Source: Bacteroidales bacterium (lineage in GTDB: Bacteria > Bacteroidota > Bacteroidia > Bacteroidales > JAIPAH01). From it: 58,272 bases of DNA. This document shows positions 12,635-30,812 of this stretch, one piece after another. Position 1 is the first letter of the stretch. Each line of letters opens with the position of its first letter. The translations under genes and the position numbers were made by a program. The DNA is taken from the NCBI GenBank assembly GCA_021740175.1, contig JAIPAH010000002.1:1-58272 (forward strand), given 5' to 3'. The notes beneath the pieces are model-generated. The model saw only the letters and a program-made list of their open reading frames with translations. It did not search any database and was not told the DNA's origin.

Positions 12635-14644
12635 TCATTTCGCCAGATAAGTTATCTGAGTATGTCTACATAGCCGCTTTTCTTGGTAGATTTCAGCTAA
12701 ATCAAAGGGGCCATCTGTTTTTTGGAAGAGGTCTAAACCTCTACCTAAAATAATTTTCCACCCATTATTCGTTTCAATGAATCTATCATGGATGCTATCA
12801 TCAAATTCATAAGTAAAATAAATCTCCATAGATTCAAGGGATTCCTGTATTTGCTTAAAAGATTCCTTAGCGTTTTCAAGGTATTCCTCGTTATTGTTAG
12901 TCACTAAGTGAAGCTTTACCATTTCTCCTTTTTCCTTTACATCTGCCACCAAGCGACAGAATTCCATGAAATTTCTCATTTGATAAGGCAATCTGATAAA
13001 AGGGTCAGTTAGTGTTATTTCTGTAGCGCCTTTTAAATAATCGGCAAAAAGCTTATAATATGAAATCCCTGTTTGGTTATCATGGATTATTTTTTGACTA
13101 TAATCTGGCAGTTTCTTTTTGGTATTTTTAGGCTCTTCCTTTTCCTCTGTATCAACCAGATCTTCCTCGCTTTTGTCTATTTGCTCAGGTAAATAATTCA
13201 AATACTCCAAAGTGTTTATGATTACTTTCTTGCCAGAGCTATTGATATTATATGAGAAGTCGACTGGCTCAAATGTTTCATCCATTTTAATTAGCTCTTG
13301 CTTAACCCGCTTTCTATTTTCAATAGCAAAATCAAAAAGCTCTTTCAGTTGATTTTCATCATATTGCCCGTCAGGATAAATCACTTTAATCAATCCGCTT
13401 ACTGTTTTGGCGATGGAATCTCTATCTCTACTGGTTAACGTGTCTGATAATTCGAAATATTCTTTATAAATGTTCGTATAATCTTCTTTTCTGAGATGTT
13501 TAAGGATCTCTGCTAAATAATCTACTATAAAACCGTAATTATTGGTAAACATCTCTGTTCTTAACTTATTGACTTCCCAGCCGGGCAAATAACATTGTAT
13601 TCGATCAAGAAAAGCTGAATCATGATATACATCAGGCAATGCTTCAAAAAGATCGCTGTGCTTCAGCATAAAGGCGACTGAATGTAAGGTATTACCCACA
13701 AAAGCCATCGAAGCATCAGCACCGTATACTTCAGTACCTCTTGAGAAGGATTTATTTGCCATGTAGTTTTTCATGATGTCTACAAGACCTTTATCGACTT
13801 TTTTTGTCGTCCCTGCAAATTCATCGTAGGCAACAACGTCCCAGTAACCAACTAAACCAATATCTCCAGTACTATTATTTACAAACAATTTGGCCTTAGT
13901 TACTTCCCCTCCACTAATTAAAATACCGTGAGGTGACATTTCAGAGTAAATATGAGATTTTCCTGTTCCTTTAGGGCCAAGTTCAATGAGATTATAGTTA
14001 TTCTCTGCAAATGGAACTAAACGGGTTAATTGGATAAATTTAGATCGCTTATTGAAATGTTCCGGGTTCAGCCCAATGGATCGCATTAGGAGATCCAACC
14101 ATTCATCAGTTTTAAATAACTTTCTGGCCTCTTTAAATTCTTCTATATCAATTTGAGCTACTTGAATGGGTTTTATACTTTCAAGTATCCAAGGACTTTG
14201 CTCTTTTTCCTCAGGAACAATATAACCCAATGTAACTATGCACCAAACCCCTGATGATAGAAGTTTTTTGTGTCTTTTAACAATGTCCGGATCAACAATT
14301 ACTTTTTTTACTCCAAGGTTGGCAAAGGCAGCTTCATACAAACCTCTCCTGTCATTCAATTTAACCGAAACCTTGTCTATTATTCTATGCGATCCCTTTT
14401 CTTTGATAACTGACTTAATATACTGGGCTTCATCCCGGTGAACAAAGTGCTCTGCGATAATCTTTTTTACTGACTCCACCCCTGCATTTATAGTTTCTTC
14501 GTCATCTGTAGCACAATATTGCCCCAATAAGTATTCTAAGACATAGGTTGGAACAACAGCATTCCCTTTAACTAATTTGGTAAGATCCTTTCTGACTACC
14601 TTACCGCCATAGTGTTCGTTGACTTTTTTATCCAGTGTATCCAT
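12635..14644 (-). CDS. brxL: BREX BrxL-like AAA ATPase, variant with MIT_C/PLD-like C-terminal domain in place of Lon protease domain
   Basis: The N-terminus LDKKVNEHYGGKVVRKDLTKLVKGNAVVPTYVLEYLLGQYCATDDEE and Walker A GPKGTGKSH match BrxL over about 470 aa. The last ~150 aa (TDPFIRLPYQMRNFMEFC...SIHDRFIETNNGWKIILGRGLDLFQ) resemble the MITD1 C-terminal PLD-like domain. Last gene of the BREX operon. Confidence 0.85.
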   Translation of the reverse strand: MDTLDKKVNEHYGGKVVRKDLTKLVKGNAVVPTYVLEYLLGQYCATDDEETINAGVESVKKIIAEHFVHRDEAQYIKSVIKEKGSHRIIDKVSVKLNDRRGLYEAAFANLGVKKVIVDPDIVKRHKKLLSSGVWCIVTLGYIVPEEKEQSPWILESIKPIQVAQIDIEEFKEARKLFKTDEWLDLLMRSIGLNPEHFNKRSKFIQLTRLVPFAENNYNLIELGPKGTGKSHIYSEMSPHGILISGGEVTKAKLFVNNSTGDIGLVGYWDVVAYDEFAGTTKKVDKGLVDIMKNYMANKSFSRGTEVYGADASMAFVGNTLHSVAFMLKHSDLFEALPDVYHDSAFLDRIQCYLPGWEVNKLRTEMFTNNYGFIVDYLAEILKHLRKEDYTNIYKEYFELSDTLTSRDRDSIAKTVSGLIKVIYPDGQYDENQLKELFDFAIENRKRVKQELIKMDETFEPVDFSYNINSSGKKVIINTLEYLNYLPEQIDKSEEDLVDTEEKEEPKNTKKKLPDYSQKIIHDNQTGISYYKLFADYLKGATEITLTDPFIRLPYQMRNFMEFCRLVADVKEKGEMVKLHLVTNNNEEYLENAKESFKQIQESLESMEIYFTYEFDDSIHDRFIETNNGWKIILGRGLDLFQKTDGPFDLAEIYQEKRLCRHTQITYLAK

Positions 14645-14646
14645 AA

Positions 14647-17142
14647 TTAAATATCATCAAAATCACTTGTAAATGAAATGTTTAAGGTATAATAATATTC
14701 TTTATAATGCTTCCATTGGTTTGAACCTTCAACAGGTTCTTCCAATATTAATTTAACACGCTGATTCTTATATTTACCACTTGCGTTGGCACTTAATTGG
14801 AATCGGTGTTTTACCTCTCGTGTTCTTTCCAGCCCTTCTGTTTTATCAAATTTGTAGGTGAATTGATCACTCAGAATAGTTCCATCGTCTGCATATAAAG
14901 CTGCCCGAATGGTTCTGGGGAGTGTTTTTTCCGTTACCAATTCGGTTTGTAGAAAGGATACAGCAAGCAAATTGGTAGTTATTTTATCTGATGACTTAAT
15001 CACGTCTATTTCAACTTGCTTGGTAGTATCTTTTCTTACCTTGGTTACTTTCACCAGTGGAACAACTATTTCTTGTAGGGTAGCCCCACCGTGCACATAT
15101 CTTGAGCCTGAACCTTTTACTCGAATCCGATTAATTGATTTTGGAATTAAAACTTCTCCTTTTCCGTTTAATCCCAGCTGCTCTGAAGTAAAGTGTTTTG
15201 TGCTCTTTTCACCATCAAGGTTCTGTCCGATGACATACCTGCGGGATTCTTTCCAAATATTCCCCTTCACCTTTCCTGCGGAGAAATCGCTTTCATCAAG
15301 CTCATGATTTTGGTATAAAAAGCCATGATCAGCCGTAATGAGCATATTATACCCATTCATATTGCTGATTTTCTTCACCACATCTAACAAATAATTGATT
15401 TCTGCCTCAACAGCTTCTGTTAGCTTGTCCTCTGAAGTTTTATCGTCACCTACTTTATCTATCCGGTTGTGAAAGATATAAATCAAGTCATGCTTTTTAA
15501 CAAAGTCCCTCCCATCTGTACTGGCATTCATAGCCATAAAATCCTCTGCATTGATAGCGGTTGCTTTTGCTTCTTGGTAATTTTCTAAAACATTTTTCCG
15601 GCCCTGTAAACCTGAAGCTGATTTACCATCCACTAAAACATTATCGCTTTCAGGCTCTATTGAAATATGCTTATGGGGTAACAAATTGGCCATTCCTAAC
15701 TGGGTGTATGATGGTAGACTTGTAACCATATAATTCATTTGACCTTCAAAACGTTTTTCGTTTTGTATTTTTCGGAAATATTCCCATCCACATTCATACC
15801 TCAGCGCATCTGAAACCACTACAAATACTCTCTGTTTTTTTGTAATAAAGCTTTTCACGTGGCCTGTAAAAAATCTGTTTTGAGAAATTTGGTGAATATC
15901 ACCCCACGAATCAATATTGTCGATGATTTTTTGCCAGTTGTTATTGAAATGGAAAAGCCAGTCGTTACGATAAACCTTTTCTACCTTATCAAGTAACTCC
16001 TCTAATGCTCGATTCTGTTTAGTTAAGCGATAATTATGAATAAACTTCCGGTAATCGTAGTCTATTTCGAAATAAGTATCCGTATAATTTTTGATACCTT
16101 GTTGGAATGATTCAATCTGATCCTGATTATGTTTTTTAACTAATTTGATGAGGTCATTTCCATATTTAAGACAGGCATAGAAATACTGATACTCATTATA
16201 CCAGTATTTGTACTCTCTTTTCTTGATAAACTGGTCAACCTTCCCATTAATATAAACTTCATTGATTATAAAATAAGAAAGATCGGAAATCACTTTTTGA
16301 TCGATGATTTCAAATAGGTCATCTTCTATAACATCATCAACTGTTGCTTCGTTAAGCTTGGCTTCCACGTTCAATTCGTCCGCAATCTTATTCGATAAAG
16401 CTTTAAATGATTCCCTGTAGGTGATTGAATCTTTCCAAACCGAGAGTAAAATTTTGGACTCATTTGAAATACCTGTCCGTTCTCCAAGCGAAAAGTTATT
16501 CTTAAAAACTTCAATTAGAAAATCATAAATAGAAGGATTGTCTGAAATATAATTGAATCGTCTTTCAATCTCTTTCCAATAAAATGATTTTAAGTTGTAG
16601 CGTTCTAATTCCTTGTTATACCTTTTACTTTCATTGGTGAAGGCAGTCGCATGAGCCATGATGAAAGAGGTTAATCCAATATTCTCCACCCCGAAAAGTA
16701 TAGCCAGCATTTTATAGCGGATGGCCTTGTGCTCATCATTTTTCCCGAGTAAATCTTTTAATTTCGCTCTTCTTTCCTTGTTAGCGAAAAACTCAATATG
16801 CTCACCAATGAGTTCTTTAAAATGAAATTCCAGCCCCACCTCCTGACAATACAGGGCTTCTTGATCACTATGAAAGACAAAGTAAGCCAATTCAAGGTCT
16901 AATAGCCAATTGTTGTGATGTTCTGGTTTATCATAAGGAAAATACAGCAGGAACTTATCTTTTGGTTTCTCTCTTTCGATGAGATGTTTTAAATAAAATT
17001 CGTTGTTATCAACCTCAACCTTTTCCACATCTCCTAATGATAATTCAGAGAATTCATGGTAAAGTTTTTTCTCTTTGTCATACCAAAATATTACTCGGTA
17101 ATCCTGAAATTTTTTATTTAGGTTTTCCGCTATTTTACTCAT
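14647..17142 (-). CDS. pglZ: BREX alkaline-phosphatase-like protein PglZ
   Basis: 831 aa. PglZ-type motifs VVVSDALRYE and ITADHGF. Positioned between pglX and brxL, with an ATGA overlap with the pglX stop. Confidence 0.9.
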   Translation of the reverse strand: MSKIAENLNKKFQDYRVIFWYDKEKKLYHEFSELSLGDVEKVEVDNNEFYLKHLIEREKPKDKFLLYFPYDKPEHHNNWLLDLELAYFVFHSDQEALYCQEVGLEFHFKELIGEHIEFFANKERRAKLKDLLGKNDEHKAIRYKMLAILFGVENIGLTSFIMAHATAFTNESKRYNKELERYNLKSFYWKEIERRFNYISDNPSIYDFLIEVFKNNFSLGERTGISNESKILLSVWKDSITYRESFKALSNKIADELNVEAKLNEATVDDVIEDDLFEIIDQKVISDLSYFIINEVYINGKVDQFIKKREYKYWYNEYQYFYACLKYGNDLIKLVKKHNQDQIESFQQGIKNYTDTYFEIDYDYRKFIHNYRLTKQNRALEELLDKVEKVYRNDWLFHFNNNWQKIIDNIDSWGDIHQISQNRFFTGHVKSFITKKQRVFVVVSDALRYECGWEYFRKIQNEKRFEGQMNYMVTSLPSYTQLGMANLLPHKHISIEPESDNVLVDGKSASGLQGRKNVLENYQEAKATAINAEDFMAMNASTDGRDFVKKHDLIYIFHNRIDKVGDDKTSEDKLTEAVEAEINYLLDVVKKISNMNGYNMLITADHGFLYQNHELDESDFSAGKVKGNIWKESRRYVIGQNLDGEKSTKHFTSEQLGLNGKGEVLIPKSINRIRVKGSGSRYVHGGATLQEIVVPLVKVTKVRKDTTKQVEIDVIKSSDKITTNLLAVSFLQTELVTEKTLPRTIRAALYADDGTILSDQFTYKFDKTEGLERTREVKHRFQLSANASGKYKNQRVKLILEEPVEGSNQWKHYKEYYYTLNISFTSDFDDI

Positions 17143-19862
17143 TTTATTTGTGATGTATCAATCCACTCAAAGTTTCTTACTTTGTCTTTTGTTTTCTTAT
17201 CATTAAGTCCATTTACTTCTTTTACAGCTTTTCCGAACTTGTTGTAGTTCACTAATACCCCATCATCTAAATCTATGTTGATCCGCTCTGTAGCCAATGG
17301 ATATAGTATCTCCCTGTCATATTCCTTAACTTCCCAAAGCATCTTATCAATTCTTTCATCTTCTTTTATGGCCTCTGTTTTTTCACGGGTACTTCCACTT
17401 ACCTTGAGTTCTTGTAAGTGTTCTTTTCTAATGCTCAATTTCTCCGTGAATTCTCTCAAATATTTATTCAAAATATTATTTATGGTATCGGGAGTATACC
17501 TGTGCATATAAATTAACACGTTGAAAACGCCATTAGGTGAAGAAAGCATCCAGTAAATAGGTCTCTTTTTGTACCGTTTAATATGGTCTTTATAAAAGTC
17601 TTTCATGAAATACTTACGAATAGGTTTCCCCAGAGAATCTTCCACAAAGGCGAGGTTATTTTCAAAATTTTCTTCTCCAAAGGTGACTTTCAAAAACTGA
17701 TGGAATCGACCCACTATATCGTCTTCAAACCATTCATCGTCCAATACAGGAATTACATTGTCATCATCGGGTAAAAAGGAAATTTCATTTTGAGGCTTTC
17801 CAACTTTTTCAAGGTAATCTTGCAGAGTTTCTCCTTGATTGGCGAGAATAAGTCCTTCTTTATCCAATGAATATCGCCCAAACATACATCCAACGGCATA
17901 ACTCACAAATTGGGCAATGACTTCATCAGCATGAAATATTAGTTGTCCATTTTCTATACTCGTTTCTTGTTGAAGTATTGTAATATTCTCTAATGGTACA
18001 TTAGGAGATAATTCATTTTGCAAACCATAAATTTCAATGAATTGTTGGTTTACTTTTTCTTCATTACGATGAAGTTGGAAATATTTATTTCTCCAATATT
18101 GTTTATAAAGATCAAATGATTCTTCTATATCTTGAGCTTTTAAGCTGCATAATTCATTTTTGGAAAAAAACCATGATGATTCTCTTTGGTTCCAATCGGA
18201 TTTAGCAATGTCAATGCAAGAAGATACAATGACTTTTAAATTATTATCATCAAATCCTGAGTATGGTATTTTTGAAACATCACCTACATTAAAAGTCAAA
18301 GTGGGGCTTAATACCTCAAGAAATGATAAAACAACTTTTGAGTTTAAAAAACCAATTAACTCTTCATTAGTACTATTAATAATAGGTCCCCTTGAATTTG
18401 GAATAAAACCAAACTCTTGCATTCTAAAAGCAGGGGCTCCAGAGCTAACATCACTGAAAGATATTCCTTCCATACAGTAATAGTTATAATTCCTAATATA
18501 TCTTGACCAACTATTTGTAGCTGGATCATTAGGATTGTTTATTAACCAATCTTTTATTTCTTCACCGTCATTTTCCCAATTTATTATGAAATCGTTGTTA
18601 CCATACCATTTTCTAAATCTTCCTCCTTTTGTCATAGGCAACCATTTTTTGGACTCTTTCAGATCATTTCTGCTTTTATTTGAGAAATCTAACTTTGAAA
18701 ATGAGACTTCGTGCCAAAAACGCAAAAAACGATTATTATTGCCTGTAGAAAGACCTGCTCTTGGTGGGTAAATATGTCTCAAATCTGGTTCTTTAGAAAA
18801 TGCTTCAATCTGCTTTCTGTTTAACCAATAACCGATTCGATAATCAGGTATATTCTTAAAATCATCCTGCAAGGCTGTGTACAACCATGAAGAATTTTTA
18901 TTATTTACTGCTTCTATAGCCTTTGGGGCTTGGTTTTTAGAACCTTTAAAATCACTTAGACGAATATAACTTCCTTTAGCTAAATATTCAGGCTGTTTCT
19001 TTCTTAAAGTAAATGTGCAAATTGGCACAGTAGCTCCTTCGAATCCTGAATATTCAAGTTGAACAAGATTATTTATGAAATAGTTATCAATAATTATTTT
19101 TCTTAACTCTTTATAATTAGAAATGAACATCCAAACAAAAGGAGTCATGTTTCCTGAAAGTCCATTATCATTGGCAAACTCAAGACACCTTATTATGAAA
19201 GAAGCAAATAAATCTGTTTTAGTTGCTGGAAAATACTTCTCCACATATTTTTTCAATTCAGCTTCCATTCGAGATGCATTAAGATAAGGTGGATTTGTCA
19301 CAACCACATCATAAGTTCTGGACAGATAATCAGCTTGTAGTTTTAATCGTTGCTGTTGCTGACCAAATAAAGACTCCTCCTCAGTTTTTATTTCCTCATA
19401 TTCCTCTCGATTGATTTTAATCAGGGAACCCAAGACTTTGGCATTTTTGAATTTGGGGTGGTTTTCGATATTTTGAAAAGAGGTAATATTGGGGTGAGCA
19501 CCTTTTCTAAGAAACTTTCTCTGATTTTGGCGGGCTTTCATCATTAAGGAAAAAGCAGCCATTTGTGCAGCCCTATCATCTATATCAATACCGAATAAAT
19601 TTTTTGTAATGATCAATTCAGGTATTTCTGATGGATTGTATCCTTCTTCTTCATAAATTTTATACAGGAAATCAAATGCATAACTGACTATATGTCCACT
19701 ACCCACGCAAGGATCAAAAAATTGAATTTCTTCAGGAGAGGTTAATTTCCTTTTGGGAATCAATTCTTCATTCTGAGGCTTGATATAGAATTGCAAATGC
19801 TCCGTTATTCTGGTATTTGGTCTTGCTTCCTTCCATAGTTGTCCTAATGTATTATCTACCAA
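17139..19862 (-). pseudogene. pglX: pglX 3' fragment (907 codons, from LVDNTLGQLW to stop) of the disrupted BREX methyltransferase
   Basis: Contains the catalytic VVTNPPYL motif and a long PglX-like C-terminal region. It has no start codon of its own and is read only as a continuation of the recombinase ORF 17139..21473. It joins seamlessly to the 5' fragment at 30096-30812. Confidence 0.85.
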
Positions 19863-19870
19863 ATACTGAA
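19863..19870. repeat. Junction core ATACTGAA (recombinase-proximal att site)
   Basis: On the coding strand ..AATTTTATTCAGTAT|TTGGTAGATAAT... The octamer is identical to the one at 30096-30103. Confidence 0.7.
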
Positions 19871-21473
19871 TAAAATTAGTTATATTAGAACGAATATGCT
19901 CTAATTCCTTGTTAACGTCCTGATAATCTTCGTCTAAACTAAATGTATCAATTAAATATTCATCGCTCAATGGCAGGGCAGTAAAGGTATTCTCAATTAT
20001 TCCATTGATTTCAAATGTTACATCCTTATCCCTGGTAGCATCTACATAAACGCCTAATCTACGCCCTTGACTGTCTTTGCCCTGAAAAGCTCGCTCCACT
20101 AAATTGCGTTTCCATTCATACGGCTTATCAAAGAGGACTTTTAGATTGGATTTCGTACTGTTCAATAAAACGCCCTTGCCTAATTTGGATAGTTTTTTCA
20201 CGTGGTTGGAATCCGGTATGCTTTCCAGTTCTGCATCAATAGCATAAATACGATTCTGTTTAGCAGATTCTTTTTCCCTAATGGAATTGAGTTTGTTTTC
20301 AATTTCTGTTTTATCAAATAACCCGTCCGCTACGGCATCAATTATTTTTCCTTTTTGCTTTTCTAAGGTTTTCAGGTCTTTTTCTAACTCGGTTTTCTCG
20401 GTTTGTAATCCGTCTATTTTTTGCATATCCGGGGCAGCCCTTCGCATGGCTTTTTCCAATCGTTCTACATCGCCAAACGTTTGTACTAATTGAATAACAA
20501 CGGCGGATTCAATTTCCTGAGCCGCAATCCAACGTGGATTATTGCATTTTTTGCGGCTGTGGGCGTGGTGTACATAGTAACGATTCCCACTACTGGTTGT
20601 GGTTCCACATAGTGCATATCCGCAATTCTTACAGAAAATCATCCGGCTTAATAGATACTTATTTTTGATTTGCCCGTGCTTATACGTTCTATTCGCCTCT
20701 GAACGTTCCTGAACGGCTTTTATGGTTTCATCATCTAATAAAGGCGGGATTTCCATTGTTATTTCCTCGTGAATATTCAACCGCTCGTTATTAAATTGTA
20801 CTTTCCACTGACTGCCTACTCGCTCTTTTAATATTCGCCACAAATTAGCAGTATTCATGCCTAAGGATTTAGCAATTTCATCAATTTTCTCGCCTTCCAA
20901 ATACCGATTGGCGGCTTGTTGAATCCGTTGTTGTTTTTCCTTATCCAATCCCCAGCCTTTTTCATCACTGTATGTTCTGCCATAAGGCAAATGTCCACTG
21001 GTAGGAATATTGCGTTTGGCTTTATTTATCCGATTGATAATGCTTTTTTGGCTTTGCATCATGGCGTGAAACTCGTTTATTTCCGCGCTCATGCCTAAAA
21101 ACATATTTTGTTCAGGATTAAATAAGTCATATTCCATTGTACCGACGAAAAAACGGATATTACTTTCTTTTAGAATCCTTAGCCCTTCTTTACTTTTCAA
21201 ATTATCTCGGCTCCAACGACTTGCATCGGTTACAATTACAGCATCAAATAAATCCTTATTACTGTCTTGTAACAATTTTTCCATTTTCTTCCGCTCATAT
21301 TCAGGTGTAGCGTGTTCCTGCCCGGTGTATTGCCAACAATGTTCAGGAATAACGCCATTCAACGCCCTTACATATTGTTTGATTTGCTCGGTTTGCGTTT
21401 TCAAACTCTCGCCCTTTGTCTGTTGGCCTTCGGTGGATACGCGGATAATTGGTGCGAATCTTAATTGTGCCAT
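19863..21473 (-). CDS. Large serine recombinase (native part, 537 codons); ORF reads through the junction into pglX
   Basis: Resolvase catalytic motif APIIRVSTEGQ with DASRWSRD. Recombinase domain GHLPYGRTY. Zinc ribbon CKNCGYALCG..(x)..HSRKKC. Coiled-coil region. No stop codon before the element boundary at 19863. Confidence 0.9.
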
Positions 21474-21526
21474 TGTTCTAATCTATTCTGAGTTTATAAA
21501 TCTTATCATTTATTATTTGTTTGGTT

Positions 21527-21811
21527 CTACTTTGCTGACTTTTTAGGGCTCCATAATTTCTTACAATCCTGGCATTCGTAAGTGCCTCCGGCAAATGGTG
21601 ATATTAAACCGAAAAGAAATGCTCCCGCCCCAATAACAATCAACGGAATACCGATAATCGGAAACATTAGAAGCCAAATTCCGCATCCTGTAAGACCAAG
21701 ACCGCCTAAAATAAATTTAATTGTATGCTCTGCTGCTGTGGTTTTCTTCTGTCTGGTTGAACCGCATTGCGGGCATTGTGGGACTTCATTTTGCTCATTT
21801 TGATTTGTCAT
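21527..21811 (-). CDS. Small zinc-ribbon membrane protein
   Basis: CPQCGS near the N-terminus and CQDCKK near the C-terminus, with two TM helices between them. Confidence 0.5.
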   Translation of the reverse strand: MTNQNEQNEVPQCPQCGSTRQKKTTAAEHTIKFILGGLGLTGCGIWLLMFPIIGIPLIVIGAGAFLFGLISPFAGGTYECQDCKKLWSPKKSAK

Positions 21812-21829
21812 TGTTCTAATTTTTTTGGA

Positions 21830-22465
21830 TTAATATTCGATTCGTTTAATATTCGATTCATTGTCGTCTGGTACAAGGTCGGCATATAACAGCGTCATAT
21901 TGATATTAGAGTGCCCCAGGTACTTTTTCACTTTCAGCAAATCCTTTGTACTCTTGTAAAGATACGTTGCGTACGTGTGCCGGGCGTTATGGATGCTGTA
22001 TTTCTTTGACAATCCTGCCGTTTCAACCGCCTTTTCCCAGCTTTTCATGAGTGTTATTGTTGGCGGGTGATTCCCGTTCCTGCCTGCAAACAATGGCGCA
22101 TTTTTATCAATGGATTGGCCTAATGTCTTTTGTTTGTAGCTTATGAAGTTTTTCAGGTGCGAGCATAGACCGGATTCAATGTACACGAAACGCTGTTTTT
22201 TCCTTTTCCCGCTCCTGACAATTAGATAAGGATTTTTTCCTGTGGTGTTAATGTCGCCAATCGTTAAGGCTGCCAGTTCCATAACTCGCAAACCGCTATA
22301 CAAAGCTAAATCAACAAGCATGTAACGGACAGGCTTTGTTTTCCTACCTTTCATTAAATCTAATTCCGAACGTTCACGACACGTTTTTAATAATGTCTTT
22401 TGTTCGTCTTCATCCAGAAACTTTTCCGGTGTGATTACGTAGTTTGAAATTTCTCGGGCTGCCAT
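21830..22465 (-). CDS. Short tyrosine recombinase (catalytic domain only)
   Basis: GLRVMEL (box I Arg), HNARHTYATYLY (H-x-x-R) and LGHSNINMTLLYADL (His/Tyr). At 211 aa it lacks a long N-terminal core-binding domain. Confidence 0.85.
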   Translation of the reverse strand: MAAREISNYVITPEKFLDEDEQKTLLKTCRERSELDLMKGRKTKPVRYMLVDLALYSGLRVMELAALTIGDINTTGKNPYLIVRSGKRKKQRFVYIESGLCSHLKNFISYKQKTLGQSIDKNAPLFAGRNGNHPPTITLMKSWEKAVETAGLSKKYSIHNARHTYATYLYKSTKDLLKVKKYLGHSNINMTLLYADLVPDDNESNIKRIEY

Positions 22466-22702
22466 AATGTAGATTTTTAGTGTAAATATTTTATAGTTTA
22501 TTTAATTGTTTTTATATAATACCTTTAAAAAATCAATTAGATTTTATATATTATATAATATTTGCTATAAAATTAATATAAAAATTGGAACATTCCTGAC
22601 ATATGACCGAATAATTTTAAAATTATTTGTTAAAAATATTTATCACATTCAGCATCCACAAGCAATCTCAGCACTTCCATAACACGAACAATATTTTACA
22701 AG

Positions 22703-23413
22703 TCAACGTAAACGAGTGTATGGAATTGGGCGTGGACGCACAGGCTTTGTTTTATCGGTATTTTCTTCGTTCTCCTGAACGTTCTCCTTTTCCTTATATC
22801 CTTGTTTATCCTTTTCGTCTGTTACAGGCGAAGTTTTCGGGGTTTTTGTACGGGTCATAGGTTTTGTTTGTGGTTTCCTTAATTCCCACGCAAAGTAACT
22901 TTCATCAATAACCGTATTGGAATGCTCGTCTGTCATTTTCGCATACAACTGGTTAAATACCGATAATTCAGTCCGGTTTAGCTTGGAGAATGCCTTTTCT
23001 AATTCAAACTCATGTTCCTGTTCTGTTTGGTGCTGTGCTTGCTCCTGCTCCGCCTGTTTGCTTTGGTGATACGCATACGATATTTTAGATAATAGCTCTA
23101 ATATGTTTCGTTGCTCACTAATCGCTTTTAAAGCCATTCCATCCCGCTGTTTATTATAATTCCTGTCAAATATATCCTTTGCCTTAGTCAGGATGTCATC
23201 GATCTTATCAAACAAATTAAATCCTTCATCTAATGATTTCCTTTCATATGCCTGTTGGATTTGCCTACTTAAATGATTCTGCATATGGTTACGCACTGTA
23301 TAATAAGCCATACCATACTTTTTAGAAATTTGCAGAAAGGATTCACCCCCCATGTAAGCCCTTTCCATTTCGAGTTTATACTCGTCTTTGCATAAATCAC
23401 ATCTATCTGCCAT
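22703..23413 (-). CDS. HTH-containing protein (regulator or small-terminase-like), function uncertain
   Basis: N-terminal C.LC followed by ..FLQISKKYGMAYYTVRNHMQNHL (HTH-like), then a coiled-coil and an acidic/basic tail. Confidence 0.35.
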   Translation of the reverse strand: MADRCDLCKDEYKLEMERAYMGGESFLQISKKYGMAYYTVRNHMQNHLSRQIQQAYERKSLDEGFNLFDKIDDILTKAKDIFDRNYNKQRDGMALKAISEQRNILELLSKISYAYHQSKQAEQEQAQHQTEQEHEFELEKAFSKLNRTELSVFNQLYAKMTDEHSNTVIDESYFAWELRKPQTKPMTRTKTPKTSPVTDEKDKQGYKEKENVQENEENTDKTKPVRPRPIPYTRLR

Positions 23414-23414
23414 T

Positions 23415-23726
23415 TTATTTTCCTCCTTTTAGCCCGTTAATTAATTCTGTTAATTTGATATTTCTATGTTTTGTTCTTATTATTGCCTTAAACCCTTGAT
23501 TTTCATACCTTTCTATAAATTCTGGTAGTTCATCTGCTATTATTGCTGGCTCGGATTGGATTTCCTTAGTCTGTCTCTGGAATGATACAATATCAATTAG
23601 CCAGCAATCTGGGTCTGCTGTGCAAATGAGAATAGAATTGGATGAATGAGTTTTACTCAATATTCCGATTCGTTTGTAGTTTTTATATCTTTTGGATAGC
23701 TTCATCTTATTATTCTTTTGGGTCAA
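23415..23726 (-). CDS. Hypothetical protein
   Basis: 103-aa ORF, tightly packed with its neighbours on the same strand. Confidence 0.4.
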   Translation of the reverse strand: MTQKNNKMKLSKRYKNYKRIGILSKTHSSNSILICTADPDCWLIDIVSFQRQTKEIQSEPAIIADELPEFIERYENQGFKAIIRTKHRNIKLTELINGLKGGK

Positions 23727-23885
23727 TTATTCTTATTATTTATCCATTAGTAAAAATTAGATTAAAAATTGTGTGCAATCTCTCTCCCTTATTTATGTTT
23801 ATAATATATTTTATATAGTATTTTATATTGTATTTAATACGGGTTCTAAAACTTATTGATAACCAATTAATTATAAAGATTTTTA

Positions 23886-24013
23886 TTCTCCATTTATAGT
23901 TAAACCATTCTCCATTTATAGTTAAACCATTCTCCATTTATAGTTAAACCATTCTCCATTTATAGGTCGCTATTTTCCATTTATAGGTCGCTATTTTCCA
24001 TTTATAGGTCTGA
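23886..24013. repeat. Six tandem 21-22-bp iterons (putative replication origin)
   Basis: TTCTCCATTTATAGTTAAACCA occurs three times (23886-23951). TT(C/T)TCCATTTATAGGTCGCTA occurs twice (23952-23993), plus one partial copy. The array abuts and overlaps the 3' end of the Rep-like gene. Confidence 0.8.
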
Positions 24014-25657
24014 TTGTTTTAAATTAGATGTAGATTTATATTTTTCTTCTTTTCCAGTTAAATTCTCTGTTCCGAACTTCATCCCGGTTTGTTCATCCTT
24101 ATATTTCCATTTAACTTTCATTACTTTACTTGGATATTCGCCTTCATCACCTGTTGCAGACATACTACCGATAGTTACCTTGGATTTTCCTTTTCCTTTT
24201 CGATTCATGGCCTCCTCTAATTTGATAAACTTTTCCCGTAAACTTCGCCCGGATTCAATTTGTGGCGTGAATCGGTCATTTATATTCTTAGCATACCACG
24301 ACAAGGCGTTTTCTATCCGCTCAATACTTACTTTGTTTTCCTCCACTAATAACCGAATATCATTGCTCCAATTCTGTTCCTGTTTTACGGTGCAGCGAAT
24401 ACCTCTTTCATTTTCAATAATCGTAGCGAGCTTTTCAGCTAATGGATAATATTTAGAGTTTACAGGCTTTTCGGATAGGGTTTTGGGTTTGCTGCTATTA
24501 GGCTCATTAATTGCAGCACTTTTGTATTGATTGGTTCCTCTGCCACCTGAATGACTACTCGCAACTTCTCCCTTTTCCTGGCCTTGTTTGATAGGCATAA
24601 TATTGACTTTATCCCGTTCAATCTCAAAACGCCCGATAAGTCCTCTTTTCATTAACTTGTTTAATGTAGTTTTAATCTCAAACCGAATATTTGCCATGCT
24701 TTTTTGTTCTGATTGCAGCCCTCCTAATCCGGTTAATTCATACATTTTCCTGATTCCAATGTTAGATAATCGCCCGTATTGATTAAATGACTTTTGCCGC
24801 ATTAAGAAGTAATAAATATTAGCTTCCCGGCTCGGTAACTTGAAATAAATTTCTGGTTTCATAAACGGGTATCCTTCATCAATAAGGTCAACAAAATTCT
24901 TATCCATAAAAATTTCAATCTCAAAAGATGAATCCTCCTCTAATTCCACAGCCCCGTCTAAAATACCGCCAATCATTCTTTTCCCATTTTTATTTTTTAG
25001 AGTTATAACACACCCCCGCAATCGTTCTAAACTATTCCAAATGGCCTCTTTGGTTTTTTTATCATAGGGATTAGCTTTTTGAAGCATTTGGCCTATTTCT
25101 GTCATGGTGGTAGTAAAATAAATATTCTTTCTATTGATTTCCGTTTTCTTCATTCGTTTGATAAGCAATAAAGCGAGTGTCGTTTTCGCATCCTCCGCAG
25201 TTAATGCTGTTCCTTTGATTTCCATTGTTGTTAGGCCATATTTTCGCTCTAACGGTTGTGAAAGCTCAATGAATTTACCTTCCCTTTTATTTAAACATAG
25301 GAAAGGTGTGGGAGCTACAAAATCATTTGGTAACCCTTTATAATCGGTTTCAAAAAATCCTTTGTATTGCGGTTTAATAAGGGGTTTTATAAGTCTCCGA
25401 GCTTGCGGATTGAATTTTTTTGCAATATCTACTACATCTTTTTCATGATGAGCCCTGATAAAGCGGTTAATTCCTTTCTTCATATCAGTTTTAATGGCTT
25501 CAATACTTTGTGTATCGTTATCTGTTGTTTGCCATAGGTCTTCGTATTTACTATAAAGCTCGTTACAATTCTCAAAATATTTACTGACTTGATATAGAGT
25601 GGATAAATATTTTTGTAATTCCGTCTTTTTCTTTGTTGGTTGTTTTGTCCTTTTCAT
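24002..25657 (-). CDS. Putative replication initiator (Rep/winged-helix-like)
   Basis: 551 aa. Central region ..IYYFLMRQKSFNQYGRLSNIGIRKMYELTGLGG.. is reminiscent of RepA/Rep_3 initiators. Iteron array lies immediately downstream. The assignment is mostly contextual. Confidence 0.5.
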   Translation of the reverse strand: MKRTKQPTKKKTELQKYLSTLYQVSKYFENCNELYSKYEDLWQTTDNDTQSIEAIKTDMKKGINRFIRAHHEKDVVDIAKKFNPQARRLIKPLIKPQYKGFFETDYKGLPNDFVAPTPFLCLNKREGKFIELSQPLERKYGLTTMEIKGTALTAEDAKTTLALLLIKRMKKTEINRKNIYFTTTMTEIGQMLQKANPYDKKTKEAIWNSLERLRGCVITLKNKNGKRMIGGILDGAVELEEDSSFEIEIFMDKNFVDLIDEGYPFMKPEIYFKLPSREANIYYFLMRQKSFNQYGRLSNIGIRKMYELTGLGGLQSEQKSMANIRFEIKTTLNKLMKRGLIGRFEIERDKVNIMPIKQGQEKGEVASSHSGGRGTNQYKSAAINEPNSSKPKTLSEKPVNSKYYPLAEKLATIIENERGIRCTVKQEQNWSNDIRLLVEENKVSIERIENALSWYAKNINDRFTPQIESGRSLREKFIKLEEAMNRKGKGKSKVTIGSMSATGDEGEYPSKVMKVKWKYKDEQTGMKFGTENLTGKEEKYKSTSNLKQSDL

Positions 25658-25704
25658 AATACATCATTTTATCATTCTACATTCTGTCCATTCCTTTTTT
25701 ATAA

Positions 25705-25773
25705 GTCTGAGCTAAGGAGCAGTAGAGGAACGAACAAAACTACTGCCCCACAGCTCCGGCAGCTGCCTCAGAC
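25705..25773. other. GC-rich multi-hairpin palindromic element upstream of rep
   Basis: The outer stem GTCTGAG/CTCAGAC (25705-11 / 25767-73) encloses the GCAGTAG/CTACTGC hairpin (25719-25 / 25740-46) and the palindrome GGCAGCTGCC (25758-67). Confidence 0.5.
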
Positions 25774-25850
25774 CCTATATGTTGCCCGGCGGTCGTAATC
25801 CAGTACAAAAACTACAACCCTTTTTTTGGCTTTCCGGGCAATGTCTTTAG

Positions 25851-26012
25851 TTATTCAATTGCTTCTTTTAATATTTTTGATAAGTAAAAAGCATATCCAG
25901 CCCAAAAAGCTATTACGATTCCCGTTATGATATTTTCATCTATAAAATTGTACATGCTAAATCCTATCAATGCCACTGCTATGCTTAGCAAAAAATATCT
26001 TATCGTTTTCAT
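25851..26012 (-). CDS. Possible 53-aa two-TM membrane peptide (below ORF-track cutoff)
   Basis: My own translation: MKTIRYFLLSIAVALIGFSMYNFIDENIITGIVIAFWAGYAFYLSKILKEAIE. Same strand as all other element genes. Confidence 0.35.
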   Translation of the reverse strand: MKTIRYFLLSIAVALIGFSMYNFIDENIITGIVIAFWAGYAFYLSKILKEAIE

Positions 26013-26186
26013 GGTTCATCTTTATTTTATAATACGATTTCATCTCATTTCAATTAAAGAAGGGAGCCGGATGAAAGCACGACCCCCTTCAAACCAAAAA
26101 AAGAGAGAACAAACCAAACCACAAACCAGCATTGCCGTAGAAAATGCTGAAACAAAATCCAACGCCGCCAGTTTGTATCTTAAATA

Positions 26187-26972
26187 TCATTTTACGGATT
26201 CCTTTTCCAATTCAAAATCCTTTCCGTCCCATTTAGGGAGCGGCGCTTTGACGTTCGCCCGCATCATGGATTTTTTGCCTTCATCTTTCGCTTTTGCTCG
26301 TTCTAATTTTGTTAATCTCCTACATTCGAGCTTCCACGTAGATACAAGCGTAAAGTAATCCGAAGTTTTCATTCCGTTGTAAGGACTTCGTTCATCCTTA
26401 ATCCTTAAAACTTTTTTGGAATCCGGTTCAACGTTTTGCCCGTCAATCTCGCAAAGGACTCCGCCTCGCATTTTCCCAGCACCCTGTAAACCATGTTTCA
26501 GGACTCGGCCTTTAGCAATCTTTTCTTTTTCCTTTTGGACTTTATCGAGCCTACGTTTAATCGAATCCAGCTCCAATTTGGTAACATCGTAATATGCTTC
26601 CGCCTTAAACATTTTCTCCGCAATATGTGGCGGGTATTCCGTTGGCTTTGCCCTGCCTGCATTTACCTTTTCTTGTTGGTATTCCTGCCAACTGGTTTCA
26701 GCATCTTTCAGATGAGCTTTCGCAATGTTCATTTTACTATCCCGATTCTCGTTTCTCTCCTGATAGTAAAACATCCCGTCTTCCGGGCGTCCTTCCCATT
26801 CGAGCCGCATAGATTTCAGAAATACCGGGTCATCCAAACTGCCTGACACTGAAAAATCTTCTACAAACTGATTATTCAGTATTGCGCTTTCCTTCCGGTG
26901 CTTGTCATACTTTTTATCATAAGCCGGATGCTGCCCGATTTGATACCTTCGTTTTCCACTATTGTTTCCCAT
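26187..26972 (-). CDS. Hypothetical charged protein (phage-like context)
   Basis: 261-aa ORF, same strand, 10 nt after the upstream gene. No family recognised. Confidence 0.45.
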   Translation of the reverse strand: MGNNSGKRRYQIGQHPAYDKKYDKHRKESAILNNQFVEDFSVSGSLDDPVFLKSMRLEWEGRPEDGMFYYQERNENRDSKMNIAKAHLKDAETSWQEYQQEKVNAGRAKPTEYPPHIAEKMFKAEAYYDVTKLELDSIKRRLDKVQKEKEKIAKGRVLKHGLQGAGKMRGGVLCEIDGQNVEPDSKKVLRIKDERSPYNGMKTSDYFTLVSTWKLECRRLTKLERAKAKDEGKKSMMRANVKAPLPKWDGKDFELEKESVK

Positions 26973-26982
26973 TGTTGCCTCC

Positions 26983-27762
26983 TTATTTTACGTTAGGCAA
27001 CAACAATCCGTCATCGCCTTCATTCTCGTTTTCTTCTACTTTGTTATAAGCAGTAGGCAGCAAGATTCCCTGTTTTTCTGCCTCTGCCTGTAAGGTTTTT
27101 AAACCTTTTTCATCCTTGTTTTCTTTGGGTTTCTCCACTCCATTTGGCGGAAACAATCCCATGTCCTGTAAAGTGTCCATTTCAACCTCCTTATTTACGT
27201 TATTTATCATTATTTCTCCAGCCTGTGTGGCCAGTTCTTTTAATCTACTATTTGTTCTAATCCCGCATCCGTCAGCCCAGCTACATGCACCCCTTTCATT
27301 TGGTAACAGCGCCAGGTGGTCTGGTTCCATAGCAATCGAACTCATATAGTATTCATTATCGTTATATGTACCGTAGGTTTCCGTTTCTTCTGAGAATACC
27401 CCTGCGCTAACTTCTTTCACGCTTTGTATCTCCGTTAATCGGTTATGATTGGATGGAATCTCAATTTTAGCTTTGATTCCTTTTTTGCTATTGTCATATT
27501 GCGGTTGGGTTACTTTTCCGATAATCTCGTCCGGAGCTTCTTTTACGCTAATCGGTTCTCCATTTCGCACTGGATGGTTGATAACAACGGGCGTTCCTTC
27601 CCATTTGCTCGCATTGTCTCGTAATACGTGCGCAGGCCAAAAGATTGGACCGCGGCTTCCGTGATGCACGCCTTCAACCATTATTATGACCGGGGCAACT
27701 GCCTTGTTTCCGACAAGCTGCCACGGGCTGGTTAAATTAACTGTTATTGATTGTCTTTTCAT
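26983..27762 (-). CDS. Phage-like protein, possibly DUF2213 / prohead protease-scaffold-like
   Basis: VEGVHHGSRGPIFWPAHVLRDNASKWEGTPVVINHP resembles the N-terminal signature I recall for DUF2213 phage proteins. Acidic C-terminal tail. Confidence 0.35.
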   Translation of the reverse strand: MKRQSITVNLTSPWQLVGNKAVAPVIIMVEGVHHGSRGPIFWPAHVLRDNASKWEGTPVVINHPVRNGEPISVKEAPDEIIGKVTQPQYDNSKKGIKAKIEIPSNHNRLTEIQSVKEVSAGVFSEETETYGTYNDNEYYMSSIAMEPDHLALLPNERGACSWADGCGIRTNSRLKELATQAGEIMINNVNKEVEMDTLQDMGLFPPNGVEKPKENKDEKGLKTLQAEAEKQGILLPTAYNKVEENENEGDDGLLLPNVK

Positions 27763-28219
27763 AGCTTAATCGTTTTTGAAGGTCTGACATATATTTTTTC
27801 TCCTCTTCGGCAAAGTCCACTCCATCTCGTCTCAATTGCATTTCAGCTCGGGTTTTTTCCATCAATAAAAAACGGTCGAAAAAGGATTTTGCGCTAACGA
27901 GAAAAGATAACTTCTCATTCATCGGTAAACCCTGAATCTTTGTGAAAACCTTGTAAAATGCTTGCTCCACTTCGTAGGGGGCCATGGGCTTGCCTTTCAT
28001 TGGCATTTCTCGGTTATTCAACCAGTCAATCGGTCCTAATTCTACTTCCAGAAGTTCCCGGACTTTCGGCCCTGGGTTATTTGTACCGTTTTCAATAAAG
28101 CTGATTGTCACTGTGGAAACGCCTGACTTAGCGGCTAACTCCGTTTGTGTTAATCCCGCTCTTTTTCTCACATTTTGCAGAGAATAGTATCTCATTTTTT
28201 TATCGTATTTAAGTACCAA
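27737..28219 (-). CDS. XRE-family HTH regulator
   Basis: LQNVRKRAGLTQTELAAKSGVSTVTISFIENGTNNP is a canonical Cro/C1 HTH. The start may be the internal Met (MRYYSLQN). Confidence 0.8.
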   Translation of the reverse strand: MVLKYDKKMRYYSLQNVRKRAGLTQTELAAKSGVSTVTISFIENGTNNPGPKVRELLEVELGPIDWLNNREMPMKGKPMAPYEVEQAFYKVFTKIQGLPMNEKLSFLVSAKSFFDRFLLMEKTRAEMQLRRDGVDFAEEEKKYMSDLQKRLSYEKTINNS

Positions 28220-28623
28220 AATTCATTTACAAGATTAAAATTAATATCTTCCCTTAATAAAACCTAATAAAATCATAATAGTTATTAACAATTTTTTATA
28301 TGTTTGTTAATTATATTATATTAATCAATTGCAATCCAATCCATTAACCTTTTATTTAAAATATATATTAATTATTAATATTTTTAAAATATATGCTTAA
28401 GTTTTAAACTTTGGGGTTTATTTTATACTTTTAATCAGATACTTGCGAAAGTCTAAAACACGAAATGAACGGCTCTAATAAACGTTCGGGGTAATATGGG
28501 TATAATATACTGGAAAGGATAGAACGTTTATGAGAGCTTAAATTTGACACCTTATTTGCTTTTTAAATCGGAATTGATTAATTTAGTCAGGTTATGTATA
28601 ATATTGCGATTAGGGTTGAGATG

Positions 28624-28663
28624 AAAAAGCCCGGCCATTTCGAGGAAAGGTCGGGCTTTGTTA
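28624..28663. terminator. Rho-independent-type hairpin downstream of lipoprotein gene
   Basis: GCCCGGCC (28629-36) pairs with GGTCGGGC (28649-56), 8 bp with one G-U. Flanked by AAAAA on one side and TTTGTTATT on the other. Confidence 0.5.
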
Positions 28664-28697
28664 TTATATTAAAATTTAATTATCAATTAGTGCCAGT

Positions 28698-29330
28698 TTA
28701 TTTTATGTCTTCAAATCTCTTAATTTTAAAATTACGTGTTAATATTATTTGTGTATCAAGTGTTCTCTGGGTTAAATCAGCTTCTGTTGCAGTGATTTTA
28801 GCAGTTACCAAATAATATCTAAAAGTCAATGAGTCCAGAGTAGGGTTATTCAAGTCACCCATTAAAGTACCAAGTCTAATTTGATCTTCCGTTTCTTCTT
28901 CTATCATTTGTTGGATTTCTTTTTCCGCTGATTCTTTTAGCGTCTCATTTTCGTAAACACCCAATTCTCTGTTCAAGGCAATTTTCTTCGATTTTAATTT
29001 TCGTAACTTTCTATTTTTTTTAATTTCTTGCCGTAAAGCATTAAGTTTCATTGTCAAAATAGATTTATCTGTCAAGGTGTCAATACGCTTTATTGTTATT
29101 GAATCAATTGTAATTTTCTCCTCCTCTTTCTTTTGAAGGTCTTCAAGATTCTTGGTGATAAATGTAGTTACTGTTTCTGAAATATTCTCTCTATAGTCTT
29201 TTTTTTCACCTTCTTTTTTGTGGTTAGTGTCAGAGCAAGATAAAAGAGTAGTAATGAAAATTACTAATGTCAGAGTGTTTAATAAGATTTTCATTTTTGT
29301 ATGTTTTTGTTTATAAATTGGAGCTAACAA
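28698..29330 (-). CDS. Lipoprotein with coiled-coil region (element cargo)
   Basis: MKILLNTLTLVIFITTLLSC lipobox. The likely start is the internal Met at 29294. K/E-rich. Confidence 0.55.
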   Translation of the reverse strand: MLAPIYKQKHTKMKILLNTLTLVIFITTLLSCSDTNHKKEGEKKDYRENISETVTTFITKNLEDLQKKEEEKITIDSITIKRIDTLTDKSILTMKLNALRQEIKKNRKLRKLKSKKIALNRELGVYENETLKESAEKEIQQMIEEETEDQIRLGTLMGDLNNPTLDSLTFRYYLVTAKITATEADLTQRTLDTQIILTRNFKIKRFEDIK

Positions 29331-29352
29331 CTAAATATTAATAATTATTTTT

Positions 29353-29904
29353 TTACCAGTTGTCTTTTTCTTTCCTAACTTTAAGCATATTTGTAAGTGT
29401 ATAATCTAAAATTTTTGCAGGGTGTTTAAAATTCATATCTGCATAATCCCTTAATGGATTTTTCTCCCCTTTTTCAGTCAAGGGGTCATCATAAGCCTGA
29501 GAAAACACAAAATTCTTTACTGTTGTCCTGTATTTCCCTTCTTTATAATCAACAATTAAATATCCTGTAAAATGGCTTCTTGCAATATATATTGGTGCTC
29601 TCATTTCTGAATATCCAGCACCTTTATAATCAGGATCAAATGGTTTTAAATCGGCCATAAATTCCTTTTCACTTGGATTTATTTCTACTGTCTCATTTTC
29701 TAAGTAACCTGTTGATTTAAAATTTCTAACAAGTTCATCAAAAGTCAGGTCAGTGTTAAAAACTTTTTGCCATAGAATAACATTACCTTTTTTCTCAAAA
29801 TTGTAACGTTCTTCTTCTGACAAATTGGTTATGCCACTGGAAAATCCACAGCCATTTAATAATGAAGCTGATAGTAATAATAAGATAAAAATGTATTTTT
29901 TCAT
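29353..29904 (-). CDS. Lipoprotein (element cargo)
   Basis: MKKYIFILLLLSASLLNGC lipobox. Confidence 0.55.
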   Translation of the reverse strand: MKKYIFILLLLSASLLNGCGFSSGITNLSEEERYNFEKKGNVILWQKVFNTDLTFDELVRNFKSTGYLENETVEINPSEKEFMADLKPFDPDYKGAGYSEMRAPIYIARSHFTGYLIVDYKEGKYRTTVKNFVFSQAYDDPLTEKGEKNPLRDYADMNFKHPAKILDYTLTNMLKVRKEKDNW

Positions 29905-30053
29905 AGCTTATAAATTTAGTTTAACTAAATTATCAAAAAAATTAAACAATTAATAAATTGTGACTAAGTTAATAGTGATTTGAGCAAAAGTCCAGTTTAT
30001 CTACTAAACAAAATTGCCTTTTTATAAATTAGCTTTCATGTTTTATGTCATAT

Positions 30054-30812
30054 CTAAAAAGAAGCAGCTATATTAAAAGTAGTTTTAGTTTGTATATACT
30101 GAACAATCCATTTAGGAGTGAAAAGCTGCGTAACCGGGGCAATTTCATTCGGATTGTATCTTTTCTTTGCATTAATTAACCTGTCTTTTTCTTCTGAAAT
30201 ATAAAATTGATATAACCAACCAATGATTTCCACATTCTTACAGTCTTTTATATTCATTCCATTCCTTATATCTGTAACAATAGAAAAATCACTACTCAGG
30301 TCATCGGGTAATAGCAATTCTGAATAATCATTAATATGCTCAAATAAAAAAGGGAATATTTTATGTAAATGATTACACGCCCCAATTAGTAATATTTTGT
30401 AAGCCTCATTTTGTGGATTAGAACTGGGAACATTTCCATCCAATATATCCATTATTTTGGCTTTATCAACGGGTAGCTCCTCTGGAATATCGCCTTGCTT
30501 TGCATGGTCAAGGATCTCTGGAATGGTAAATCCATCTTTAGGAGTTACAATTCTAATCTTTAAAGGCTGAAAATCATTAGCATCCAAGAATCTTAGAGCG
30601 ATCAAGCGGTTAAACCAAGTGTAAGCCACCTTCTCAATGAGTTGTTCCTGACTTATCTGATCTAATGTCTCTTTTAATTGTTTTACCCGCCCTTCCTTCT
30701 CTCTTAATTCCGAACTATCACTTGAAAGAATAAAATTAAGATTGGCTTCAATTTGTTCCAAAAGTTTTCTTCTGGCTGACTGAGCAAATTGCTTTAATCG
30801 GTTAGTGTCCAT
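30054..30812 (-). pseudogene. pglX: pglX 5' fragment (239 native codons plus 13 element-derived codons and stop)
   Basis: MDTNRLKQFAQSARRKLLEQ... is a PglX-type N-terminus. The native sequence ends ..FTPKWIVQY at 30096, then IQTKTTFNIAASF* is read from element DNA. Confidence 0.85.
30096..30103. repeat. Junction core ATACTGAA (distal att site)
   Basis: On the coding strand ..TGGATTGTTCAGTAT|ATACAAACTAAA... The octamer is identical to the one at 19863-19870. Confidence 0.7.

Follow-up and report, generated by a model that had tools for sequence, protein, structure and literature searches.

A family of serine integrases whose attP lies within the last codons of the integrase gene, and an in-frame insertion into pglX of a type 1 BREX operon

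Several serine-recombinase elements reside inside protein-coding genes and restore them on excision, such as the skin element in sigK and SPbeta in spsM of Bacillus subtilis, or the fdxN element of Anabaena. In SSV1-type archaeal integrases, the phage attachment site (attP) lies inside the coding sequence and integration makes a new 3' end. Immunity of mycobacteriophage BPs, a tyrosine-recombinase system, is integration-dependent, the affected gene being that of the repressor. Variability of pglX is also known in type 1 bacteriophage exclusion (BREX) systems, by phase variation or disruption of the gene. The Mx8 tyrosine integrase (IntP/IntX) likewise has attP within its coding sequence, integration yielding a new 3' end (PMC6070905). 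Here we describe a 10,233-bp integrative element of a Bacteroidales bacterium (assembly GCA_021740175.1, contig JAIPAH010000002.1) that splits pglX of a type 1 BREX operon and whose large serine recombinase (LSR) gene crosses its own attachment site. The window, i.e. the whole stretch of DNA analysed, is 58,272 nucleotides long and is one entire contig; the metagenome-assembled genome to which it belongs is 79.65% complete. What is new is a family of serine integrases in which attP lies within the last codons of the integrase gene itself, together with a one-off in-frame hit in pglX.

Like the skin, SPbeta and fdxN elements, the window element lies inside a coding gene with its recombinase gene at one edge, and its precise excision would restore the gene. 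It differs from them in three respects: excision under developmental control or on induction is neither known nor was seen, its target is a defence gene, and its left and right attachment sites (attL and attR) do not seem to match at the crossover. With Mx8, the family of the window recombinase shares an attP inside the integrase open reading frame (ORF) and a recombinant gene after integration. Mx8 uses a tyrosine recombinase, however, in which a large C-terminal part is replaced and activity is altered, whereas most members of the window family exchange only a short, unconserved tail past the last helix. As in type 1 BREX systems with a variable pglX, the six-gene operon is present and pglX is the gene struck, but by a 10.2-kb LSR element inserted in frame and neither by the slip of a repeat tract nor by a pglX shufflon.

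The following features, all on the minus strand, define the split gene and the fusion.
19863..30095, minus strand: integrative element, 10,233 bp, all genes co-oriented
17139..21473, minus strand: read-through ORF of 1444 codons, recombinase residues 1-537 followed by PglX residues 240-1146
19863..21473, minus strand: large serine recombinase part, 537 codons, catalytic motif RVSTEGQ (Ser13), without a stop inside the element
17139..19862, minus strand: pglX 3' part, 907 codons and a stop, with motif I (DPCVGSGH), NPPY and the C-terminal recognition region
30096..30812, minus strand: pglX 5' part, 239 codons ending ..QLFTPKWIVQY, helical bundle and first methylase-domain residues
30054..30095, minus strand: 13-codon tail and stop (IQTKTTFNIAASF, then stop), encoded by the P' arm of the element

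The recombinase gene is placed at the extreme edge of the element. Its 537 codons end ..SNITNFIQY and are joined in frame to pglX, the next codon (TTG at 19862) opening the continuation LVDNTLGQLW... Pfam accordingly finds, in the same 1444-codon ORF, Resolvase (10-153) and Zn_ribbon_recom (274-326), then Eco57I/N6_Mtase/MmeI_Mtase (581-863). The other two frames of the pglX 3' part stop after 1-2 codons, and without an in-frame insertion there would be no long ORF. At the opposite edge, the pglX 5' fragment is carried by the ORF 30054-30812, in which the 239 pglX codons are closed by the tail ATACAAACT...TTTTAG (YIQTKTTFNIAASF and stop; 30054-30095), where the recombinase would also end in the circle. 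The octamer TTCAGTAT is found at both junctions (19870-19863 and 30103-30096) in an identical codon phase (CAG TAT). An earlier note on this DNA, made from its letters, had described both the stop-less frame running into 907 pglX codons and the common phase of the junctions, and ORF and Pfam analyses bear it out on the two points. It had also named a sequence error or frameshift near 19863-19900 as a possible flaw. Both junctions are crossed with 0 differences in Logan contigs of two lake-metagenome runs (~260x and ~130x), and depth is equal on the element and its flanks. The runs may include the source sample of the window, but their assemblies are independent, which excludes a sequencing error or a misjoin.

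The 550-residue form predicted for the circle was used as a query and retrieved 933 homologues, the best at 57% identity. Their lengths (468-593 residues, median 544) agree with the product of about 550 residues that had been proposed for the circular element. The alignment is conserved as far as the column of Y537, beyond which tails diverge (0-55 residues, median 10). This column is reached by 110/120 homologues, and most of the others stop a few residues away or are cut short.

The comparison covered 55 loci of relatives from species-representative genomes, 47 of them full-length. Junctions were read against the yjbQ frame, as an automatic search for the longest common substring gave mostly false cores. 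Of the 47 full-length loci, 29 lie next to part of a yjbQ gene (UPF0047) that is interrupted at the codon for Asn in ..(V/C)NAMHITAS.., and in 29/29 the recombinase stop falls within yjbQ-derived host DNA. The frame enters the yjbQ 5' fragment antisense in 13 of these loci, runs in sense frame +1 in 15, with a recurrent tail ..CHAYHxxRxYQ and stop, and in sense frame +2 in one; it is in frame in none. Tails of the family are thus conserved neither in length and sequence nor in frame and strand, and no conserved stop stands upstream of the crossover, so that the refuting condition named in the earlier note, a stop shared by homologues and lost in this copy, does not apply.

Locus L002 illustrates the organisation of the sites. 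Its attL (..GCATGGCGT-TTAC-CAAATAAAACTAGTT) and attR (AACTAGTTTTACTTCGTA-TTAC-ACAAAAGAAG...) share the core TTAC, of which TT is the centre of the site, and the attP rebuilt from them is an inverted repeat at 16/18 positions (hand count), whose P arm encodes ..ITSFTSY. TT stands at the equivalent position in L010, L018 and L046, and the sense-oriented L038 has the complementary AA inside an 11-bp core.

Unintegrated copies show the same layout. Recombinase P0002 is found on two circularly permuted contigs of ~7.86 kb from two JGI samples (L057, 7860 bp; L058, 7856 bp), a sign that a related element exists as a free circle or in tandem array; besides the recombinase, they carry a small resolvase, an Imm_superinfect protein and a 465-residue protein. 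The 560-residue ORF of P0002 crosses AAGTAGTTTTACTTCGTC-TT-TACCTGATAAATATAGTT, with 22 codons remaining past the centre. Similarly, the ORF of unintegrated P0040 (L060) crosses its attP (AAGAGAATATTTTTTGTA-TT-TACAAAATAGAACTTCTT, 13/18 dyad) and ends with a 12-codon tail. The two circular-form tails can be compared directly: ..EYFLY followed by LQNRTSFIISSR and stop in L060, ..NFIQY followed by IQTKTTFNIAASF and stop as predicted for the window, and this resemblance also favours the predicted circular product. Three unintegrated attP forms, one of them on circularly permuted contigs, are read through the centre of the site. The crossover thus lies upstream of the integrase stop in the window, in unintegrated L057 and L060 and in the 29 yjbQ-integrated relatives. 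These results show that a stop-less approach to the crossover is the rule of the family, with no loss specific to this copy; that the ORF spans its own attachment site and that its C-terminal tail must differ between the integrated and circular states, as the earlier note had claimed for the window, holds family-wide.

This rule has a consequence for integrase mining, as the annotated C-terminus is chimeric in this family, the last 0 to ~55 residues (907 here) being host-encoded. The end of the circular form is readable only from attP; catalogues built from integrated copies would carry wrong ends and might miss the overlap of attP with the ORF.

By its sequence, the target of two Bacteroidales relatives, L009 (10146-10529) and L017 (11569-12213), is dprA as judged by eye, since both adjoin an apparent 3' part of this gene. 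With yjbQ and pglX, the family would therefore use at least three target genes. pglX itself was the target in 0 relatives, as a tblastn of both PglX halves against the 55 loci gave no match. As its attP layout stays the same while it enters conserved motifs of three or more unrelated genes (yjbQ, dprA, pglX), this recombinase family is well suited to the study of shifts in target specificity. In a large survey of LSRs, restricted to those at most 500 nt from their attachment sites, competence genes were enriched among the targets and defence genes were not (PMC10083194). The dprA targets therefore fit this trend and the pglX insertion is unusual; nothing relevant on an LSR insertion in pglX was found in the literature.

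Many yjbQ-targeting relatives bring a complete yjbQ directly upstream of the recombinase, as in L015 (9557-9973, 11565-11873) and also in L006, L007, L013, L014, L018, L019, L030 and L056. The 3' part of the element-borne copy is identical or nearly identical to the displaced host 3' fragment, so that the element apparently supplies a substitute for the gene that it interrupts, in the manner of tRNA-targeting islands. We considered whether the usual target of the family was free in the genome of the window and rejected this possibility: the host's own yjbQ (L062 1480-1887, contig C119) is intact, but of a different subtype (..VYVQGATAAIMIQENWD..) without the NAMHITAS motif. The usual landing site of the family is therefore absent in this host.

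The recombinase itself has the features of a serine integrase. Its residues 10-153 match the resolvase-type catalytic domain PF00239 (E 1.1e-14), R11, S13, S85, R86 and R89 show little or no variation in a 27-sequence alignment, and the window protein retains all the residues that are invariant in it. A PF13408 zinc ribbon lies at 274-326; the Pfam Recombinase domain PF07508 was not detected in the window recombinase. An AlphaFold2 (AF2) model, with a predicted local distance difference test score (pLDDT) of 77.7, comprises the catalytic domain, a second domain, the zinc ribbon, a helical hairpin (350-417), predicted to be a coiled coil, and a last helix (520-535); the last 6 residues are of low confidence (pLDDT <50). 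Full-length fold matches are 9dxd/9dxh, a 535-residue serine integrase with its recombination directionality factor (E 5.5e-17) which we take to be the SPbeta integrase, Bxb1 (9iu2), PhiC31 (9rah) and the LSR 4kis. The protein thus belongs among the large serine recombinases by its catalytic domain, zinc ribbon and predicted coiled coil and by the dyad of its attP, and it would be expected to catalyse recombination between attP and the bacterial site attB.

When compared with characterised integrases, the window recombinase has the same domains (Ser13, zinc ribbon, predicted coiled coil) as SPbeta SprA, Bxb1, PhiC31, the Listeria A118-type LI integrase, XisF and CcrB. As for these enzymes, attP is an imperfect palindrome of ~40 bp around a central dinucleotide, and insertion occurs at a conserved motif within a protein-coding gene. 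Similarity in sequence to them is very low, however: the window protein reaches 67 bits with the XisF model, for which the cut-off is 375, and a PDB sequence search matched the TP901-1 catalytic domain only. The other difference is that the centre of attP lies within the recombinase's own last codons, with the stop always coming from across the crossover. A literature search, which was not exhaustive, gave no report of a serine integrase whose ORF contains its attP.

The attachment sites of the window can be delimited in the register of L002, L010, L057 and L060, which is borrowed from relatives only 45-57% identical.
19844..19881, minus strand: attR, with P arm AACTAATTTTATTCAGTA (19881-19864, codons ..ITNFIQY), centre TT (19863-19862) and B' arm TGGTAGATAATACATTAG
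30077..30114, minus strand: attL, with B arm TAAATGGATTGTTCAGTA, centre TA (30096-30095) and P' arm TACAAACTAAAACTACTT (30094-30077)

In this register, attR reads AACTAATTTTATTCAGTA-TT-TGGTAGAT.. and attL reads ..GGATTGTTCAGTA-TA-TACAAACTAAAACTACTT. The dyad symmetry of attP reported earlier, 11 of 15 positions, is correct and extends in the rebuilt site to 13/18 over 18-nt arms, a value reached by 0.025% of random centres in the element (P = 0.00025). The P' arm is identical at 14/18 positions (hand count) to that of the L060 attP. As for the place of the crossover, the junctions are as the earlier note described them, but the relatives put the centre one base to the right of its joint. At this centre of symmetry, L010, L057 and L060 have TT, whereas the window has TT in attR and TA in attL, and both continue with T. 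Most simply, the two sites once shared a 10-bp identity, TTCAGTATTT, and attL later underwent a T-to-A change. This change leaves the frame and the stop untouched, and the circular tail of the ancestor probably started with LQTK.., much as those of P0012 and P0040 start with LQN(K/R)... The 13-codon tail foreseen for the circle is thus right in frame, length and stop, its first residue being probably L instead of I. Mismatched central dinucleotides are known to prevent product formation by serine integrases. As attL has TA and attR has TT at the relatives' crossover dinucleotide, this copy may be locked in and no longer excisable, if the borrowed register applies.

The operon that received the element is a six-gene type 1 BREX operon, brxA-brxB-brxC-pglX-pglZ-brxL, whose five genes besides pglX are intact.
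34879-35520, minus strand: brxA, intact (PADLOC 5e-48)
34311-34895, minus strand: brxB, intact (PADLOC 2e-62)
30814-34311, minus strand: brxC, intact (PADLOC E = 0)
14647-17142, minus strand: pglZ, intact (PADLOC 6e-254)
12635-14644, minus strand: brxL, intact (PADLOC 1.2e-296)

pglX is split after residue 239 by the 10,233 bp of the element, and the intact PglX of a type 1 BREX system is therefore lacking. When the 239 residues and the 907 codons are put together, they align without a gap over the joint (TQLFTPNWIVQYLVQNSVG) to Salmonella PglX (8C45). The latter is composed of a helical bundle (1-227) and a methylase domain (227-661) with GxG at 315-317 and NPPY at 509-512 (PMC11341690). The split maps near its residue 254, ~27 residues into the methylase domain and right behind the conserved FTP motif. 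The PglX part of the fusion keeps GxG and NPPY, but lacks the helical bundle, approximately the first 27 residues of the methylase domain and the FTP motif. Neither fragment would be a working methylase and BREX would be off, as judged from these domain limits. Because the methylase domain is cut ~27 residues in and no second pglX is found in the genome (80% complete), pglX, and hence BREX methylation and defence, is most likely knocked out. For phage-defence biology, this would be a clean natural example of a mobile element that disables BREX through a highly conserved methylase motif.

Taken together, these results lead us to consider it quite probable that the 1444-codon fusion is an accident of frame, a by-product of the architecture of the family upon an in-frame insertion into pglX of a type 1 BREX. 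The 10.2-kb element would have entered the motif ..FTPKWIVQY/LVDNTLG of pglX, at the position of the slash, by site-specific recombination of its serine recombinase. The attP of the family sits within the 3' end of the recombinase gene, its P arm encoding the last conserved residues ..I-T/S-N/S-F-x-x-Y and the crossover dinucleotide lying in or beside the Y codon. As no stop precedes the crossover, it always comes from the DNA beyond, which is the P' arm in the circle and host DNA when integrated. Here, this host DNA is by chance a gene that shares both the orientation and the frame of the recombinase, and the ORF therefore extends over 907 codons. From the layout of the family, a sense-strand insertion into a coding gene has a 1/3 chance of being in frame, and then runs to the stop of that gene. 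A search for other long recombinase proteins (794-2527 residues, among 5.8 billion proteins) returned the window's own as the only recombinase fusion. The lack of conservation suggests that the fusion has no selected function, and it is probably functionally unimportant. A further long protein of this search, P0122 (883 residues, from a 3485-bp ENA contig), shares the N-terminus only (58% identity over 27% of the query) and has the Resolvase domain only.

Several points weigh against this explanation. Neither half of pglX contains a stop or a frameshift; this undecayed state fits a recent insertion, but selection acting on the fusion, or an insertion that can be reversed, would fit it as well. 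A crossover 1-2 nt leftward, within the shared octamer, would remove the TA/TT mismatch. In Mx8, integration gives int a new 3' end and an altered specificity (PMC6070905), a precedent for a meaningful exchange of the tail. RNA runs, which could show whether the putative ~165-kDa product is expressed, were searched and none holds the stretch. In further searches, excision or circle joints were sought in contigs of 3 runs and none was found, although contigs drop rare variants. Two short 'skips' in the contigs were considered as candidate joints and discarded as spurious (21-nt sides, depth 3-10). An empty pglX site was sought in 7 genomes of the same genus and none was found.

Two alternatives to an accident of frame are still live, namely a regulation by the tail as a sensor and a reversible BREX switch. 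In the first, the tail would sense the integration state, as 13 residues from the P' arm in the circle are replaced by 907 residues of PglX, and would alter the activity, stability or directionality of the recombinase so as to stabilise the integrated state. The tail swap is a real, family-wide consequence of the architecture, it is plausible that 907 residues attached to the last helix would hinder synapsis, and the Mx8 precedent points the same way. The earlier note went further and placed the change in the region that controls directionality. In serine integrases, the coiled coil is the part that governs directionality. In the AF2 model, the tail starts past the last helix, ~120 residues beyond the predicted coiled coil, and this part of the claim is not supported. 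The integrated tails of relatives, moreover, have from 0 to tens of residues, in two sense frames and antisense, and the long fusion is unique. A role of the tail as a sensor is thus unlikely. We give similarly little credit to a broader version, in which attP in the last codons would be a regulatory device, the tail reporting the free or integrated state and tuning the integrase; here, the 907 residues of PglX would silence the integrase while the element silences BREX.

The second alternative, a reversible on/off switch in which excision restores pglX and integration silences defence, appears very unlikely. Excision at the octamer would indeed restore an intact pglX, no decay is seen in the other BREX genes or in either half of pglX, and the recombinase has kept its invariant residues. 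Nevertheless, the run contigs hold neither excision nor circle joints and depth is the same on element and flanks, attL and attR differ (TA and TT) at the relatives' crossover dinucleotide, and a recombination directionality factor was not identified. Nor are the targets of LSRs enriched in defence genes (PMC10083194).

That the chimera functions as a new protein, with the recombinase tethering an adenine methylase or a specificity module, is highly improbable. The recombinase-methylase chimera of the earlier note does exist as an ORF, with motif I, NPPY, GxG and the C-terminal recognition region retained, but it is deprived of the helical bundle and of about the first 27 methylase-domain residues, including FTP (PMC11341690), and there is no second example of such a fusion. 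Finally, although the window comes from a metagenome-assembled genome of 79.65% completeness, an assembly or sequencing artefact (chimeric join, lost stop or frameshift near the junction) has a negligible probability, as both junctions are crossed at 130-260x with 0 differences in Logan contigs of two runs, the 8-bp repeat is too short for a misjoin and the stop-less approach to the crossover is the rule across the family.

The remaining genes of the element, all on the minus strand, are the following.
27737-28219, minus strand: HTH_3 regulator
26983-27762, minus strand: DUF2213/prohead-protease-like protein
24002-25657, minus strand: 551-residue replisome-organiser-like protein
21830-22465, minus strand: short Xer-type tyrosine recombinase, 211 residues
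within 19863..30095, minus strand: two lipoprotein-like ORFs
within the element, minus strand: 261-residue protein
within the element, minus strand: 103- and 236-residue proteins
within the element, minus strand: 94-residue zinc-ribbon membrane protein

Modules of this element are also found in relatives L003, L004, L005, L010 and L022, and it is probably plasmid-like. A contrast in guanine-plus-cytosine content between element and host was considered and rejected, both being at 0.36. A second, small recombinase always lies directly upstream of the large one (window 21830-22465, L003 8748-9377, L010 9111-9698, and also L057 2513-3157 and L060 1650-2333). It is an Xer-like tyrosine recombinase (211 residues) in the window and ~12 relatives, and a serine resolvase (~215-227 residues) in others; it may serve multimer resolution of a replicating circle. 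Within the element, the Logan contigs of both runs fragment at 23885-24010 into pieces of 35-49 nt with a depth of 100-336, which is consistent with a short tandem repeat, possibly varying in copy number.

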